DNA of 64,000 bases from Candidatus Geothermarchaeota archaeon (GCA_015523545.1 WAKB01000005.1:8897-72896); one strand, 5' to 3'; numbered from the stretch's first letter, positions 56,757 through 63,023 are shown. Notes: generated by a model not told the origin, from the sequence alone. A program made the numbers and translations.

Positions 56757-57683
56757 ATGGCCAACCTATCGATAAGGAGGGTGGGTGGGGGAATACTAGT
56801 AGAGTATCAAGGCGTTAAATACGCCCTCGACAAGATCCCCTCTAGGGTGGGGGCCGACTACAATCTAATATCCCACGCCCATATAGACCACCTACCCCAT
56901 AGGCCAAGGGGCAGGGTACTAGCCTCCAAGGAGACCCTCCTCCTGGCAGAGGCCAGGAGATACAGGTATAGAAACGTGGTGGAGAGTATTAGGGACGTAG
57001 AGGTATTCGACGCGGGCCACATACTAGGCTCCCGCTCCTTCCTAATAGGTGGGAAGATCCTCTACACAGGAGACATAAACACATCTAAGAGGATTTTCCT
57101 CGAGAGGTTCAGGCCTCCCCAAGCAGAGATACTTATAATAGAGGCCACCTATGGAGATCCTAGATACGTCTTCGGAGGCTTCGATGAACAGGTTGCAAGG
57201 CTTATACGATTCGTATCTAGGAACATGGTCAGAGGCGTAAACATAGTCCTGAGGGCCCACCCACTTGGGAAGCCCCAGATAATCACACATCTACTCAGAA
57301 ACGTGAAGAACCTATACGTCAGCCCAAGGGTAGCGAGGTACAACAGGATATACAGCGAGGTGCTAGGCCTAGACGGCCTCCTATATGGGGGAGAGCCACC
57401 TAGTGACGAGCCCTACGTGGTAGTGGCTGCTGGTAACGAGGAGCTGAGCCTACCCAGCAACGGCTGTGAGACGGTGGAGGCCAGGGTCTCAGGCTTCATG
57501 ATAAGGTCTAGGAGGGGGATAGCCATGAGCGACCACCCAGACTTCAACAGCCTTATAGAGGTTGTTGAGGAGGTGGGACCCAGGAAGGTATACACGATCT
57601 ACGGCTACGCATCCAGACTAGCCGAGGAGCTGCGCAGCCTAGGCTACGACGCAGAGCCACTAACCAGCAGAGATGTAGACTAG
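56757..57683 (+). CDS. Metallo-beta-lactamase-fold beta-CASP-like nuclease (resembles DNA-ligase-associated exonuclease family)
   Basis: HxHxDH as ISHAHIDHL, AGHILGS, GDIN, EATYGDP and SDHPDFNSLIEVVEEVGPRKVYTIYG. About 308 aa. Confidence 0.65.
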   Translation: MANLSIRRVGGGILVEYQGVKYALDKIPSRVGADYNLISHAHIDHLPHRPRGRVLASKETLLLAEARRYRYRNVVESIRDVEVFDAGHILGSRSFLIGGKILYTGDINTSKRIFLERFRPPQAEILIIEATYGDPRYVFGGFDEQVARLIRFVSRNMVRGVNIVLRAHPLGKPQIITHLLRNVKNLYVSPRVARYNRIYSEVLGLDGLLYGGEPPSDEPYVVVAAGNEELSLPSNGCETVEARVSGFMIRSRRGIAMSDHPDFNSLIEVVEEVGPRKVYTIYGYASRLAEELRSLGYDAEPLTSRDVD

Positions 57684-58519
57684 CCAGAGGCCTTGGAGAC
57701 CGTTCCCATTATACTCCTATAAGCAGACTCGACATCCACTTTGGGATCGAGGAAGGAGGCTGCATAGGCAGCAGCATATGCAGCAGCCTCAACAGGCTTA
57801 TGACCCAGCTTGAGGAGGTAGTGGCTGAAGACGTATAGGAAGTAGTCACCCACGCCAGTGGGGTCTGGGGCATCCACCCTATATGGAGATACTGTATATA
57901 CCTCATCCCCAGTCTTCACCTTGAACCCATCCCCCCCAGAGGTGTAGAGATAAACATCAGCCTCAATACCCAGCTCCCAAGGGGGGCTGGAGACATCCTC
58001 TACAGAGGCCTTGACCACAGAGAACCTAACACTCCTCAACCCCTCTAGTGACCCGCCCATTACAACCCTTCCTCCATCCACACGCCTAGCGAATCCCTGG
58101 AGATCAATCACTACGGGGAACACACCTGAGAGGGAGGCTGGAACCGAGGGGGACACCTCACCCAGGACTGGGGAGACTATGATAAAGTCGGGGGAGACTA
58201 GGGAGGCTATCCTCTTCGCATAGACCGGGTCCAGTGTATACCCGCCTCCATCGACCTCCTGCCTCCTCATATCACCGCCATAGATATTGGTGAAGCGGAG
58301 ATTCCTCCTCCGGGAATCCATGTCTAGGAACGTTATGCTTGGCCCCAGAGCCATGGAGAGGTCGAAATCCATACCCACTGGGGATAGAACCGCGTAGTCA
58401 TCACCCAGGCGCTGGGCCGCCATACCGGCATAGTGGGGAGGCCCACCTACACCAAACCTATGCACCTCGCCAGAGACTATCACGTCATATGTATAGCCAC
58501 CGATTATCAGTGTATCCAT
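57680..58519 (-). CDS. PfkB-family carbohydrate/nucleoside kinase
   Basis: C-terminal ATP/anion-hole motif DPTGVGDYF and an N-terminal GG region (LIIGGYTYD). It shares a CTAG convergent stop with the beta-CASP gene. Confidence 0.7.
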   Translation of the reverse strand: MDTLIIGGYTYDVIVSGEVHRFGVGGPPHYAGMAAQRLGDDYAVLSPVGMDFDLSMALGPSITFLDMDSRRRNLRFTNIYGGDMRRQEVDGGGYTLDPVYAKRIASLVSPDFIIVSPVLGEVSPSVPASLSGVFPVVIDLQGFARRVDGGRVVMGGSLEGLRSVRFSVVKASVEDVSSPPWELGIEADVYLYTSGGDGFKVKTGDEVYTVSPYRVDAPDPTGVGDYFLYVFSHYLLKLGHKPVEAAAYAAAYAASFLDPKVDVESAYRSIMGTVSKASG

Positions 58520-58537: not shown

Positions 58538-59032
58538 CTACTTCTCATCCGCATCAAACTTTGAACCCTCAATAATCTTCAACCCACTCTCAGAGTCATC
58601 AACCTTGATAACCTCATCCTCGAATACAAAGATAGTGTACTCCACCACCGCGCCAACCTTATTACCCTCCTCCATCATGTGACCCGTATAGGAGGAGCAC
58701 TCGTCACCTAGAGAGACGTGAATATGGATCACAGGCTCACCATCATACTCAGCTATAAAACCGTTACCCGTCATCTCAAGGAGGCCATCGAACTTCAGAG
58801 GCAACTCCTCATACTTCTTCTTTTCCATATCGTAGTATCCAAGCTTTGCCTCGGATAAGGCGCCAAGTAGCACTATGCTACCCCCACGTATTCTTAACTC
58901 CTTAGCGATCTTCTTCAGCTCTGGAATTACGTCTTCACCCTTTCCTATCCTGCCATAGATAACTTTGACTATCTTGGTTTCGTCCGCCGTAGTATCTGTT
59001 ATTTTATTAGTTTTATCGTTTCCGTTGCTCAT
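58538..59032 (-). CDS. PPC (DUF296) domain protein
   Basis: LLGALSEAKLGYYD...LEMTGNGFIAEYDGEPVIHIHVSLGD...TGHMMEEGNKVGAVVEYTIF fits the PPC/DUF296 pattern. Confidence 0.65.
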   Translation of the reverse strand: MSNGNDKTNKITDTTADETKIVKVIYGRIGKGEDVIPELKKIAKELRIRGGSIVLLGALSEAKLGYYDMEKKKYEELPLKFDGLLEMTGNGFIAEYDGEPVIHIHVSLGDECSSYTGHMMEEGNKVGAVVEYTIFVFEDEVIKVDDSESGLKIIEGSKFDADEK

Positions 59033-59775: not shown

Positions 59776-59814
59776 AAAATAGAGTCATCCACCGTCATAA
59801 CTAAAAAATGGGGG

Positions 59815-60447
59815 TTACAGCCTCCAAACAATCCTGAGACCATTATCGATCGTGACGTAGGGAGGTTGTGGATCCCCAATCAATAGGCTACACCTCCTCG
59901 TAGACCCGATCCTAAGCCGATTACCATCCAAGTATAGCGTGACTGGGCATCCACCATACAGCCTAAACAACTCCTCGATCGGATATCCATATTCCCTGAC
60001 AAGTGTTATCGACCCCCTGCTGTAGGGCCTCCCCCTGATTAGTATCTTCCCAGCCCTCTCGATGAGACCCAGTAGATAGTCCCTATCCACCATCACCGGC
60101 ACCAGGTGGTTCGAGAGTGTCACTGGATCAGTCTCCACACCACTTATAAGGAGCTGAGCCTCCCCCTCACTATCCAACAGTACAGTGGGGTCCCTAAGTA
60201 CGGCCCTAACCAGTATCCCACCCCTCAGCTTGTCATAGACATGCCGTGAAGGCGTATATAGAGGTGAGGCGACGCCCCTCCCCACAGCCATAACCCCGAA
60301 CCCGTTATAGGCACCGTTCCTCACAAGCACCTTATACCCGTCCAAGAGTTCCTCCACCCCCTCTGTAACGATGTAGGGAGGCCTATCCAGCACCGCTACA
60401 AGCCTGGGCTCTCCAGTGATCAGCTCCCTAAGGTCAGTAGGCGCCAA
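59815..60447 (-). CDS. Hypothetical soluble protein (about 190-210 aa), last gene of the RecA/KaiC-like cluster
   Basis: ORF only. Start is TTG 60447 (28-nt overlap with the upstream gene) or GTG 60393. No motif recognised. Confidence 0.45.
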   Translation of the reverse strand: MAPTDLRELITGEPRLVAVLDRPPYIVTEGVEELLDGYKVLVRNGAYNGFGVMAVGRGVASPLYTPSRHVYDKLRGGILVRAVLRDPTVLLDSEGEAQLLISGVETDPVTLSNHLVPVMVDRDYLLGLIERAGKILIRGRPYSRGSITLVREYGYPIEELFRLYGGCPVTLYLDGNRLRIGSTRRCSLLIGDPQPPYVTIDNGLRIVWRL

Positions 60448-60716
60448 AGAATCATCACCTCCCTCCTAAAGAAGTAGATGATCAGTAGGACGAGGATCAT
60501 CGCTGGGGGAACCTCGATCAGAAGCGCTATAAACGCGCCTAGGAGGACATATATCGTGGTCGTCCTCATCATACCGGGATATCTATGGACGAGTATCGGT
60601 GAGCTCAGCAAAGCAATGATGAAGAGCATAGCAGCAGCCAGGTCAGAGACCAGGCTGATAGCCATGGAGGCCATGTAGCCAGCGACGACTACCTTAATCA
60701 GCCTCCCCATCCACAT
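60420..60716 (-). CDS. Small 3-TM membrane protein (about 96-98 aa)
   Basis: The ATGs at 60716 and 60710 lie inside the last 17-23 nt of the upstream ATPase gene (TAA at 60696-60694). Three hydrophobic helices. The track's longer N-terminal extension is rejected. Confidence 0.5.
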   Translation of the reverse strand: MWMGRLIKVVVAGYMASMAISLVSDLAAAMLFIIALLSSPILVHRYPGMMRTTTIYVLLGAFIALLIEVPPAMILVLLIIYFFRREVMILWRLLTLGS

Positions 60717-61674
60717 CCTGTGTAAACCCCCTCTCATCAAGCCTGAGCCTAAGCCTCCACCCAGCCTCGGGCATGTGTGGAGCCCTATACCCAATCACTT
60801 CCCGATAACCATCCTTCTCCAGCCTCATGTAGAGCACATATTTGAATCCATAGCCCACCGCTGAGCCGCCGTAGAAGGAGTGGTAGTTCGTCGTGGGATT
60901 CCTAGACTCGTGGTTAGAGACGAATACTATCAAGTCATGGCTAGAGGCGAGGGTGCCCAGCGAGTGAAGCATCACATTTAATATCGCTGCCCTGGTCGGG
61001 AAGTCCTGTAGATGGAAGATATAATTCTTCATGAGGCCGCCTAGGCTGTCGAGGAGTATAAACTTGACGCCGGCACTCCTTATGAAGTTGGCCAGGGGAG
61101 ATGTCTCAAGATCGGTCGTCCTGTCCATGGAGGCCTCAATCTTCTTACTACCCACCTTGACGCTGCTCTTCATTCCGAGGATCTCAGCCAACCCCTCAAC
61201 GCCCGAGACCTCATATACGTATATAGCCCTATCCACAGCCCTCTCCGGCCTAAGCTCCACCTGTGGAAGGAGATATTCGAGAACTCTCCTGAGATAGGTC
61301 TCATCTACCTCCATCCCCAACTCCCCGAAGACATCCATCATAACGTTTCGAATGTCGTTCAGATAGCGCCTCTTACCACCCTGCACCCTATACTTCTCCT
61401 TCGATAGCCTAACCATCTCCACCTCTACACCGAACCTCTTTGCAAAGCGCTCCATCCACGTCTTGGAGAAGTTATTGTAGAAGCTATGCTCAGAGTCCAG
61501 CACCAATGCGGAGCCAAACCCACTGGAGACCCATTCATAGAGGATCTGTAGAGCCAACAAGCTCTTACCAGTCTGGTACCTACCATAGATATGTATCATG
61601 CTGGAGGGCGCTACTCCACCCATGAAGACCTCGTTAAGCCTAGGGATCGAGTTTATAAGGAGCCTCCTACTCAT
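60694..61674 (-). CDS. RecA-superfamily (KaiC/RadA-paralog-like) ATPase with large insertion between Walker A and B
   Basis: LINSIPRLNEVFMGGVAPSSMIHIYGRYQTGKSLLALQ (Walker A GxxxxGKS), ALVLDSE, Walker B-like KFILLDSLGG and LIVFVSNH. The ATG at 61674 overlaps the stop of the upstream gene (ATGAGTAG). Confidence 0.65.
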   Translation of the reverse strand: MSRRLLINSIPRLNEVFMGGVAPSSMIHIYGRYQTGKSLLALQILYEWVSSGFGSALVLDSEHSFYNNFSKTWMERFAKRFGVEVEMVRLSKEKYRVQGGKRRYLNDIRNVMMDVFGELGMEVDETYLRRVLEYLLPQVELRPERAVDRAIYVYEVSGVEGLAEILGMKSSVKVGSKKIEASMDRTTDLETSPLANFIRSAGVKFILLDSLGGLMKNYIFHLQDFPTRAAILNVMLHSLGTLASSHDLIVFVSNHESRNPTTNYHSFYGGSAVGYGFKYVLYMRLEKDGYREVIGYRAPHMPEAGWRLRLRLDERGFTQDVDGEAD

Positions 61675-62833
61675 CACCCTCCACCTCCCTAAGAAGACCC
61701 ACACCCTTAGCGGTCAGCCTATAGACAGGCCTGGGACGCCCCACCTCACGTCTTAGGTAGCCATCCCTCCACAGCCTCTCTAATAGGCTATAGACAAGCC
61801 TCCTCTCAACACCAGGCATATGGATATAGACACCGTCTGCAGTCAGCTCCCCATAGCCCGATATTATCCCTAGGATCCTGGCAACGATATCCCTATGCAG
61901 CTCTAGATAGTCAGACCCAGCCCCCGACTCAGGGGTCTCGTGATATGATGAGCCCTGCTCTATAGGGGTCTCCCCATCAGAGTAGGCCGGCTCAACCCCA
62001 ACAAGGGCATCCCCATCCCACGCCACATACCTAGTCGGATACGACTGGTCAGCAGAGTATGCATATATCTCCCCCAGCCTAGCAAGGCCCTGCTCAGCCA
62101 CAACGACGTTGAAGAAGGGTATTACCCTATGATCCAGCCTATTGCTATGGACCAGAACCCGGTGCTCACCGAGGCTCCAGAGTATGTAGTCATAACCTTT
62201 TAGGAGAGGGTCACCATCCATCAATATCTGCCCAGCCCCATCCCCAAGCAGAAGGCTGAAGACCAGCTGTGGAATAACCAGCCTAGCCCAGGGACCACAG
62301 CCCGAGTACCTAACCACGATAGACTCATCACTAGGTAGCGAGACCGTCTCTGCCGGTGGCTCCAAGACACGCCCATCAGTATTCTGGACCACCATACCCA
62401 GGAGCCTATGGAGCTCTATATAGCCAGCCTTCTCGATACCGCCAGTCTCCTCAGCCCTCTCACCAGCCACCTCGTAGAGCACATGTAGTGAGGGGTCGTC
62501 GTACTCCCTCCTAACATCCCCGACCAACACTGGGAGAACCAGCATCCAGTACTGCAGCTTCATACCCAATGCCCTAACAAGGATGTAGAGACTATTCATC
62601 AGCAGCTCGGGCCTCATAAGAAGGTCTAGACGTATATCGAGGCCATACTCAAGCACCAGGCCGCCCTTATAGACACCCCGTGGATCATGGAGAACCATAC
62701 CACCTAGAGCGCTGAAGACCTCACCTACAAAGTCGCTGCGATACCTACCTACATAGAGAACCGCACCCCTGAGGAGCCTATCCGCTCCACAGTCCCACCT
62801 AACACCTTCGAAGACACACTCCATCAGAGGCAC
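61667..62833 (-). CDS. Two-domain protein: degenerate RecA/KaiC-like N-terminal domain plus C-terminal winged helix-turn-helix
   Basis: AVLYVGRYRSDFVGEVF aligns with the neighbour's IHIYGRYQTGKSLLALQ but lacks GK[ST]. GLVLEYG parallels ALVLDSE, and RVLVHSN parallels LIVFVSNH. The C-terminus VERRLVYSLLERLWRDGYLRREVGRPRPVYRLTAKG is PadR/MarR-like wHTH. Start is GTG 62833 or ATG 62824. Confidence 0.5.
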   Translation of the reverse strand: MPLMECVFEGVRWDCGADRLLRGAVLYVGRYRSDFVGEVFSALGGMVLHDPRGVYKGGLVLEYGLDIRLDLLMRPELLMNSLYILVRALGMKLQYWMLVLPVLVGDVRREYDDPSLHVLYEVAGERAEETGGIEKAGYIELHRLLGMVVQNTDGRVLEPPAETVSLPSDESIVVRYSGCGPWARLVIPQLVFSLLLGDGAGQILMDGDPLLKGYDYILWSLGEHRVLVHSNRLDHRVIPFFNVVVAEQGLARLGEIYAYSADQSYPTRYVAWDGDALVGVEPAYSDGETPIEQGSSYHETPESGAGSDYLELHRDIVARILGIISGYGELTADGVYIHMPGVERRLVYSLLERLWRDGYLRREVGRPRPVYRLTAKGVGLLREVEGDE

Positions 62834-62848
62834 CCGCTCATGCGGGTG
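62831..62848. repeat. Perfect 7-bp inverted repeat CACCCGC-tcat-GCGGGTG spanning the predicted transcription start and GTG codon
   Basis: Read directly. It lies between the TATA box and the ATG at 62824, and could act as an operator or as a 5'-end RNA hairpin. Confidence 0.3.
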
Positions 62849-62856
62849 CGGAAACC

Positions 62857-62866
62857 CCTTATAAGG
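62857..62866 (-). promoter_or_regulatory. Putative TATA box (palindromic CCTTATAAGG) of the four-gene RecA/KaiC-like cluster
   Basis: AT core TTATAA lies about 25-28 nt upstream of GTG 62833 and 35 nt upstream of ATG 62824, the expected archaeal promoter geometry for a leaderless or short-leader mRNA. Confidence 0.4.
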
Positions 62867-62882
62867 AACACGGCCCCTTCAA

Positions 62883-62902
62883 TTTGCAAAAACTTTTGCA
62901 AA
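62883..62902. promoter_or_regulatory. Two copies of the 8-bp palindrome TTTGCAAA (62883-62890 and 62895-62902), 12 bp start-to-start, just upstream of the TATA box
   Basis: Read directly as aaTTTGCAAAaactTTTGCAAAgag. The position upstream of BRE/TATA is typical of archaeal activator or autoregulator sites. The first gene of the operon encodes a wHTH. Confidence 0.3.
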
Positions 62903-63023
62903 GAGCCTTGGGTGTCAGCACCTATCTGCTTTCATCGCCCTGGGCTCAAACCTTTCGAGCCTCATCATCCACATAAACTATACCATCTTAAATTCAGATT
63001 GGCTGGGCATCTATATCTATGAC

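Follow-up and report, generated by a model that had tools for sequence, protein, structure and literature searches.

FtsK and TraB join an FtsK-HerA type domain with a C-terminal winged helix-turn-helix (wHTH) domain that reads 8-bp DNA motifs; the proteins AspA and TubR of the pNOB8 and TubZRC partition systems bind repeats that precede the operons encoding them; and small membrane proteins accompany the VirB4-like CedB in the Ced system. Here we describe an operon of four genes, denoted A to D, in a Candidatus Geothermarchaeota archaeon (GCA_015523545.1, WAKB01000005.1:8897-72896; the whole stretch of 64,000 nucleotides that was analyzed is denoted the window), which resembles each of these systems in part. 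The genes encode, respectively, a predicted pseudo-ATPase fused to a wHTH domain, a RadA-like ATPase, a small membrane protein and a fast-evolving soluble protein; they form a conserved, translationally coupled unit that is confined to one archaeal order and is preceded by a conserved palindrome. The interpretation that we favor, with about even confidence, is that this is a single autoregulated operon encoding a membrane-tethered, DNA-bound ATPase complex, with an umbrella role in a DNA transaction or DNA positioning at the membrane.

The four genes lie on the minus strand and overlap at their boundaries, as described in a first-pass annotation made from the sequence alone; every junction described there was found on reading the sequence (coordinates are given in Table 1). 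The octanucleotide ATGAGTAG at 61667-61674 is common to the stop codon of A and the ATG of B (an 8-nt overlap); the two candidate ATG codons of C, at 60716 and 60710, are located 23 and 17 nt within B; and D can start either at a TTG at 60447, 28 nt within C, which is preceded by the Shine-Dalgarno-like GGAGGGAGGTGAT that fits the archaeal consensus, or at an alternative GTG 26 nt past C. In public gene calls, A begins at an ATG at 62824, yielding a protein of 385 aa. Archaeal transcription terminates at oligo-T, and the T6 run that follows D is likely to be such a terminator and to mark the end of the operon.

Relatives found by word-indexed searches numbered 4 for A, 20 for B and 1 (close) for D; an exhaustive hidden Markov model search of 1.84 billion representative proteins yielded an A family of 24 representatives and nothing else, and when gene contexts were looked up and species-representative genomes scanned, 17 further loci were obtained. 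Gene-neighborhood analysis, which the first-pass annotation had proposed as a check, recovered the order A-B-C-D in every related locus with enough flanking sequence (at least 15 loci), at identities of B down to 36-38%. The lineage that had been assumed, Thermoprotei, turned out to be wrong: all loci belong to Nitrososphaeria/'Candidatus Geothermarchaeota', including JdFR-13 and JdFR-14, both A and B are restricted to this lineage, and the nearest relative (97% identity of B) comes from a metagenome-assembled genome of a 'Nitrososphaeria archaeon'. The recurring plan consists of a gene for a 374-435 aa protein with a wHTH domain at its end, followed by a gene for a 326-337 aa RadA-like protein, the start of which usually overlaps the stop codon of A by 8 nt, a gene for an 84-143 aa hydrophobic protein and, finally, a gene for a protein of 210-467 aa. 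The tight or overlapping A/B, B/C and C/D junctions are kept among deeply diverged loci, including those in which the flanking genes have changed. Because this arrangement recurs in all loci with enough flank, it is not a chance juxtaposition, and the four genes constitute a conserved, translationally coupled unit.

These observations bear on the notion that A is a conventional ligand-sensing transcription factor, with B, C and D unrelated to it and merely co-transcribed. The wHTH domain, the large domain N-terminal to it and the operator-like palindrome would all suit such a regulator, but the A/B, B/C and C/D overlaps persist over deep divergence despite changed flanks, the four positions co-occur in every locus, and A and B are both found only in this lineage, so that we consider this explanation distinctly unlikely. 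The flanks themselves are variable: the upstream neighbors differ by clade (Maf, GHMP kinase, DUF1614, or RpiB/OMP decarboxylase), and the rhomboid protease gene (Pfam E 1e-33), which the first-pass annotation had correctly placed just downstream of D and which begins 39 nt past it in the window, is not a constant neighbor: in some loci it shares the strand of the operon, in others it lies on the opposite one, and in still others it is missing. Given that its presence and orientation vary between loci, the rhomboid gene was ruled out as a fifth member, and the conserved unit therefore comprises A to D without it.

Farther downstream, genes for a PCC-domain protein and a PfkB-family kinase (window 58538-59032 and 57680-58519) and, in relatives, an acylphosphatase make up an order-wide syntenic block, which suggests that the operon was inherited vertically and has kept its place in the chromosome. 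In distant genomes, the place of the window's rhomboid gene just downstream of the operon is taken by an Ogt/MGMT-type gene (PF01035, DNA_binding_1; L005 8929-9324, L006 9290-9778, L007 8435-8917, and also L015, L017 and L019), which may be a hint of DNA repair or only synteny.

In agreement with the first-pass annotation, which had recognized no described system in this architecture, searches of PADLOC, NCBIfam, Pfam and PHROGs gave nothing for A, C or D beyond a weak wHTH match at the C-terminus of A; in PADLOC, none of the four proteins had a match at E <= 1, and none of them bears a name in the sequence sources that were looked up. No relatives of B were detected in the viral contigs searched, no relatives of A in the plasmid or phage records searched, and no nuclease, pilin or VirB6-like gene was present next to the operon at the loci examined. 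The absence of viral, phage and plasmid relatives and of PADLOC matches, taken together with the conserved downstream synteny, favors a vertically inherited cellular function. Conversely, a domesticated or degenerate mobile-element or defense module, either of the HerA type (TdpAB, Sir2-HerA, NurA-HerA) or a Ced-like or type IV secretion system (T4SS)-like transfer apparatus, with D as a variable effector, appears very unlikely. The fold of A does match VirB4 and TdpA, D diverges fast and varies in size (210-467 aa), in the manner of arms-race effectors, and a small membrane protein is encoded nearby, as is that of CedB; but the HerA/VirB4-like protein lacks the ATPase motifs in every member, the operon occupies a fixed, syntenic place in the chromosome throughout the order, and the accessory genes, defense matches and mobile-element relatives expected of such a module did not turn up in the searches just described. 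Although these findings argue against a defense island or a conjugation module, the variability of D leaves a small probability for a defense-like role.

The assignment of A to the FtsK-HerA division comes primarily from structural modeling. An AlphaFold2 model built from 4 sequences was discarded (predicted local distance difference test, pLDDT, 40), and the model built from an 18-sequence alignment reached a pLDDT of 85.2 and a predicted template-modeling (TM) score of 0.85. In Foldseek searches of the PDB, the best match of the N-terminal domain was VirB4 (4ag5_C, E 2e-4, probability 1.00, 272 columns), followed by the HerA-like TdpA of the TdpAB complex (8wfd_C, E 1e-3). One of the 18 family members, P0035, is matched by the Pfam DUF87 profile, which represents the HerA central domain (E 0.025); the match is collinear over ~170 aa and aligns residues 36-209 with profile positions 43-213 of 220, that is, it begins just past the Walker A region of the profile. 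The loss of the Walker A lysine reported in the first-pass annotation extends to the entire family alignment, where GK[ST] occurs in none of the 18 members; there is also no conserved Walker B motif in these members, the equivalent position being occupied by DGD, DAD, FSD, KSN and others. The family keeps an hhhhD-x-x-G-x-[WY] strand, a G-x-D turn, W96 and an E-S-x-G-x-E-K-x-x-Y helix. Because no member has the Walker A lysine, a conserved Walker B motif or the DxxGE glutamate, A cannot be a motor. Judging from the model, A is a pseudo-ATPase of the FtsK-HerA/VirB4 type fused to a winged helix.

The C-terminal domain, which the first-pass annotation had identified as a PadR/MarR-like wHTH, is supported as such by Pfam, by profile search and by Foldseek. 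The Pfam matches (PadR, TrmB) are weak; the profile search gave AspA (E 0.001-0.003) and TubR (E 0.0065), with marginal E-values; and the structural matches include the AspA-DNA structure 5k5q, Sso10a-2, MarR/PadR proteins and TubR, with TM-scores of 0.45-0.71 on the target. In 7 sequences, residues W355, R356 and G358 show no variation.

The modeled fold of A does not agree with the original proposal that A and B are inactive and active paralogues of the RecA superfamily, the dead copy carrying a DNA-binding domain, in a KaiC-like membrane-to-DNA signaling hub. This proposal draws on the loss of GK[ST] in A and its retention in B, on the alpha/beta folds of the additional strand, catalytic glutamate (ASCE) type that both proteins share, on the Pfam KaiC match of B, which is over the cut-off, and on short motif resemblances in the raw sequence. 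However, comparison of the A and B profiles with hhalign gave a probability of 0.45% and aligned only the wHTH domain of A, to a part of the insertion in B; the RecA, KaiC and Rad51 Pfam families matched none of the 18 A members; and the 50 best Foldseek PDB matches of the A model, which is similar to VirB4 and TdpA, contain no RecA-like structure. Together with the DUF87/HerA match of one member and the best matches of B, which are RadA/Rad51 and not KaiC, these results render the paralogue pair highly improbable.

Several other matches of A were obtained. PDB entry 8kea, labeled 'hub' (E 0.0035), is a baseplate protein of cyanophage A-1(L) (PMC10966104) and was treated as a chance match. Positions 5-71 and 187-228 of the A profile show weak collinear similarity (E 0.24) to 9s34_A, 'Archaeal proteasome activator 1' (a 300-aa chain), with which A shares the P-loop-less pattern IGxxDP...hhhhD..G; this tentative match was not repeated with a sub-profile and was not among the Foldseek top hits, and no publication was found. 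A fold search of BFVD returned only low-TM composites of a P-loop domain and a wHTH domain.

Protein B begins ~10 aa ahead of the ATPase core and is devoid of the N-terminal helix-hairpin-helix (HhH) domain. The Pfam matches over the cut-off are KaiC (28.6 bits) and Rad51 (25.6 bits), both within the N-terminal 80 residues only; the KaiC match (PF06745, cut-off 26.6 bits) aligns residues 10-86 with profile positions 5-75 of 231. The more specific NCBIfam models score 17-24 bits for archaeal KaiC (cut-offs 232-307), 44.5 bits for RadA, which matches the C-terminal part of B (E 1e-11; cut-off 259), 36.4 bits for TIGR02236 (cut-off 361) and 29.1 bits for RadB (cut-off 172). A profile of 18 B homologues, when compared with the PDB, retrieved RadA/Rad51 structures (E 1e-14 to 1e-11) in two blocks, in which residues 11-68 and 201-316 of B correspond to residues 12-74 and 124-239, respectively, of the RadA core; RadA/Rad51 match B better than KaiC does.

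The placement of B among RecA-superfamily ATPases in the first-pass annotation thus holds, and the motifs quoted there are present and invariant across the 18 family members. These include the Walker A residues G31, G36 and K37 (followed by S/T), the catalytic D60-x-E62 and the Walker B D209 (in LDS), which align with those of RecA and RadA. At the gamma-phosphate sensor, where RecA has Gln (Q194, TNQ/INQ), the family has an invariant His within N254-H255-E256, all three residues being invariant, the C-terminal block FYGG...GYGFKY is invariant across the family, and the L2 region is ~10 residues shorter than in RadA. The insertion between the Walker A and Walker B motifs, estimated originally at about 130-150 aa, is indeed a conserved feature, kept in all 18 homologues with invariant L119, K178, D188 and F197, but its net size is ~83 aa, given that the segment between the two RadA-homologous blocks consists of 133 aa compared to ~50 in RadA. 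No domain was detected within the insertion with Pfam or NCBIfam. B thus represents a new subfamily of core-only RadA paralogues and, by its conserved motifs, is probably active; a role as a strand-exchange enzyme is unlikely.

The relationship of B with RadA brings up the possibility that the operon encodes a lineage-specific accessory system for recombination and repair, with B as an aRadC/RadB-like RadA mediator and A as a damage-responsive transcription factor. The closest relatives of B are RadA, RadB and Rad51, core-only RadA paralogues are known as repair factors in Crenarchaeota, and an Ogt/MGMT-type gene adjoins the operon downstream in several genomes. At least one crenarchaeal RadA paralogue, sso0777, is DNA-damage inducible and is controlled by a dedicated DNA-binding protein (PMC2175319). 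A soluble mediator, however, would leave the membrane miniprotein, the pseudo-ATPase domain of A and the 83-aa insertion unexplained, the ogt gene is not adjacent to the operon in the window or its nearest relatives, and the short L2 loop of B speaks against strand exchange. On balance, we regard the repair scenario as unlikely.

Protein C was initially described as a miniprotein with three transmembrane segments. Its membrane character is borne out in all 12 loci examined, each with an open reading frame in the size range given above at the same position, although the number of hydrophobic segments is 3-4 rather than uniformly three; past the last segment, there is a conserved charged C-terminal tail, F/W-R/K-E/D-V/L...R. 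For D, the statement that it contains no recognizable motif or domain stands: Pfam scans of 11 D-position proteins detected no domain, and the profile of the 6-sequence D clade has no PDB match. This clade unites D of the window with the D proteins of L001, L003, L009, L011 and L006, which are linked to it at E-values of 1e-12 to 1e-4 and share a K-[LF]-R-G-G motif. In other clades, the D-position proteins consist of 269-467 aa, and their homology to D of the window is not demonstrable.

Upstream of A, and outside the region covered by the first-pass annotation, there is a palindrome, ~31 bp upstream of the TATA box of the operon, that contains the octamer TTTGCAAA twice, 12 bp apart, and has CAAAA-N2-3-TTTTG as its core. 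The element TTTGCAAAA-N-TTTTTGCAAA, or a close variant of it, is present in all 15 aligned promoters. In the 64-kb window, the core and the double site each occur once (0 expected), and the octamer TTTGCAAA occurs three times (0.08 expected). In 14 of the 18 loci, the core is found exactly once, 56-77 nt ahead of the start of A; in L007 and L013, which have the same sequence, the listed open reading frame starts only 9 nt past the core, and the true start of A is likely to be ~57 nt further downstream. The alignment of the 15 promoters also shows a TTTATAAGG-type TATA element ~17 bp past the palindrome and ~30 nt before the start codon, which we infer to be the promoter of the operon. Most simply, the palindrome would be the operator of A itself, because the site is highly specific and adjoins an operon that begins with the gene for a wHTH protein; an operon-specific operator combined with a wHTH domain encoded in the same operon fits autoregulation, and the binding of AspA and TubR, the nearest relatives of the wHTH domain of A, to repeats ahead of their own operons is in keeping with it. 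A metagenome scan for the palindrome returned at least 120 contigs, mostly unrelated, among them one with an A homologue, and no regulon could be inferred from them.

Several further elements were noted in and around this region. The third TTTGCAAA copy, at 61439-61446 inside B, is probably coincidental because the F-A-K codons that it overlaps are not conserved in B homologues. The 20-nt palindrome TTTGCAAAANTTTTTGCAAA is found on dozens of short contigs (loci L040-L098) from the JGI metagenome samples Ga0209782 and Ga0209366, which are unrelated to this archaeon; some of these contigs have two copies, which suggests a repeated element of some other organism. Between the Maf-like gene and A, the window contains a C/D box small RNA (sRNA) gene (62915-62968, minus strand), with the boxes C (ATGATGA), D' (TTGA), C' (CGATGA) and D (CTGA) in this order; a 12-nt guide with an invariant GCTCGAAAGG lies between C and D', and a variable guide of 13 nt between C' and D. 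The sRNA gene is retained ahead of A in L001-L004 and L008-L011, and the Rfam model sR28 matches it at 62913-62972, weakly but over the full model length (16.3 bits, E 0.75). Finally, a 9-bp inverted repeat, CGCACCCGC-ATGA-GCGGGTGCC (window 62830-62850, minus strand), spans the expected transcription start and the GTG of A; it may act as a local operator or form an RNA hairpin, but is shared only with the near-identical L008 and hence is not a family feature.

Table 1. Features of the four-gene operon and its upstream region (window coordinates)
Feature	Coordinates	Strand	Description
Gene A	61667-62833	-	388 aa from GTG; open reading frame reading
A, N-terminal domain	61979-62833	-	aa 1 to ~285; predicted P-loop-less ASCE fold, FtsK-HerA/VirB4 type
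A, C-terminal winged helix-turn-helix	61679-61909	-	aa 309-385
Gene B	60694-61674	-	326 aa; open reading frame reading
B, insertion region	61075-61470	-	aa 69-200; basic motif KGGKK conserved
Gene C	60420-60716	-	98 aa, small membrane protein; open reading frame reading
Gene D	59815-60447	-	210 aa, soluble, fast-evolving; open reading frame reading
T6 run	59803-59808	-	7 nt past D stop; read in the sequence
TATA box	62859-62864	-	TTATAA within CCTTATAAGG; conserved block in the 15-promoter alignment
Palindromic operator-like element	62883-62902		20 bp; TTTGCAAAA-N-TTTTTGCAAA

The palindrome and the wHTH domain of A together invite comparison with partition. Under a partition-like model, the operon would be a segregation or positioning cassette in which A binds a centromere formed by the upstream repeats, B is a RecA-type, filament-forming nucleoside triphosphatase (NTPase) motor and C is the anchor. 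The wHTH domain of A is nearest in sequence to AspA (E 0.001) and TubR (E 0.0065), with a structural match as well; repeated palindromic octamers lie directly upstream, as in partition cassettes; the NTPase and the DNA-binding protein are translationally coupled; and FtsK and TraB likewise pair an FtsK-HerA domain with a C-terminal wHTH domain that reads 8-bp motifs. However, there are two octamers only, with no extended centromere array in the window, and a motif that occurs once per locus could be a plain operator; the similarity of the wHTH domain to AspA and TubR is common also to ordinary PadR/MarR regulators; and B belongs to the RecA family and not to the ParA, ParM or TubZ types. We know of no RecA-family partition NTPase. 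Compared with the repair scenario, we consider this model slightly less probable and, in any case, rather unlikely.

In the scenario that we favor, a single autoregulated transcript would give rise to a stoichiometric complex of A, B, C and D. Protein A would be an oligomeric, catalytically dead, ring-ATPase-like scaffold, with a winged helix that binds the palindrome and thereby both controls transcription of its own operon and fixes the complex to DNA. The nucleotide-dependent step, ATP binding and hydrolysis, would be supplied by B, made in step with A via the 8-nt overlap; C would anchor the assembly in the membrane; and D could be a rapidly diverging adaptor or effector. DNA positioning or another DNA transaction at the membrane is more likely than pure signaling as the process served. 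A specific DNA-positioning or segregation machine, in which a dead FtsK/HerA-like ring with an AspA/TubR-like wHTH domain marks the palindrome, a RecA/RadA-family ATPase acts as a polymer or a switch, and the miniprotein provides the coupling to the membrane, seems quite improbable.

A number of observations weigh against the favored scenario. The TM-scores of the N-terminal domain of A to VirB4 are moderate (0.38 on the query and 0.51 on the target), and the DUF87 match of P0035 is below the threshold (15.1 bits compared to the 23.2 cut-off); the NHE motif of B, in place of the NQ sensor, makes its activity uncertain; the variability of D is such that the D proteins may belong to more than one family; and the palindrome could be bound by another regulator, its position upstream of the TATA box being suitable for an activator as well as for a repressor. 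In addition, nothing ties the operon to a specific cellular process.

All the folds involved are known; what is new is the B subfamily with its insertion, the architecture of A, in which a P-loop-less FtsK-HerA-like domain is joined to a wHTH domain, the obligatory pairing of A and B with a miniprotein, and the conserved operator-like site, a combination that no described system fits. If the four proteins cooperate, a RecA-family ATPase at the membrane would have a dead ring of the FtsK-HerA type as its DNA-binding scaffold; to our knowledge, no such combination has been described. If true, this would extend what is known of the archaeal RadA paralogues, whose repertoire is poorly understood. 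The palindrome provides a concrete DNA target, and the small set of proteins from this otherwise uncultured lineage is tractable for reconstitution. The scope is limited to one order of uncultivated thermophilic archaea.

Comparison with the known systems delineates the distinctive features of the operon. By analogy only, in the archaellum motor sub-complex ArlH-ArlI-ArlJ/ArlX, a ring ATPase and a membrane component work together with ArlH, a RecA/KaiC-like ATPase of a single domain, and the NCBIfam ArlH model touches the N-terminus of B (E 4e-5, 23.5 bits compared to a cut-off of 215); ArlI, however, is an active secretion-type ATPase, whereas A is predicted to be a dead FtsK-HerA-like protein with a wHTH domain, and there are no pilin or archaellin genes near this operon. 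Ced/Ted or T4SS-like transfer needs an active VirB4-type ATPase, a polytopic VirB6/CedA-like protein and a pilin, whereas here the sole membrane protein consists of 84-143 aa and A is without the ATPase motifs. With the RadA paralogues (RadB/aRadC), B shares a RadA/Rad51 core without HhH, an intact Walker A motif, the catalytic Glu and Walker B, the GG...Y/H...K/R C-terminal block and a short L2, but it differs from them in the ~83 aa insertion between the catalytic-Glu strand and Walker B, in the NHE motif replacing the NQ sensor, in scores that fall far short of the NCBIfam cut-offs for RadA and RadB, in being always encoded together with A, C and D, and in the confinement of the family to one archaeal order. 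In common with the partition cassettes (ParABS, AspA-ParB-ParA, TubZRC), the operon has a wHTH protein resembling the centromere-binding proteins and two upstream octamers. AspA (pNOB8) and TubR (pBtoxis) are the closest sequence matches, and are among the closest structural matches, of the wHTH domain of A; like A, they are encoded by the first gene of an operon that also specifies an NTPase and has DNA repeats just upstream, but they stand alone, are small (~90-120 aa) and have ParA and TubZ, rather than a RecA-family member, as partner NTPases, and generic MarR/PadR regulators match the wHTH domain of A structurally about as well. From the FtsK-HerA ATPases, the A family differs in the lack of the Walker A lysine, a conserved Walker B motif and the DxxGE glutamate, as well as of the HAS barrel and a transmembrane N-terminus, and the sequence similarity to them is sub-threshold. 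The predicted fold of the N-terminal domain is nevertheless like that of VirB4 (4ag5), TdpA (8wfd) and FtsK/TraB; the order of domains, an ATPase-type domain followed by a C-terminal winged helix, is the same as in FtsK, with its gamma domain, and in Streptomyces TraB; FtsK and TraB read 8-bp DNA motifs, and a repeated 8-bp motif adjoins gene A.

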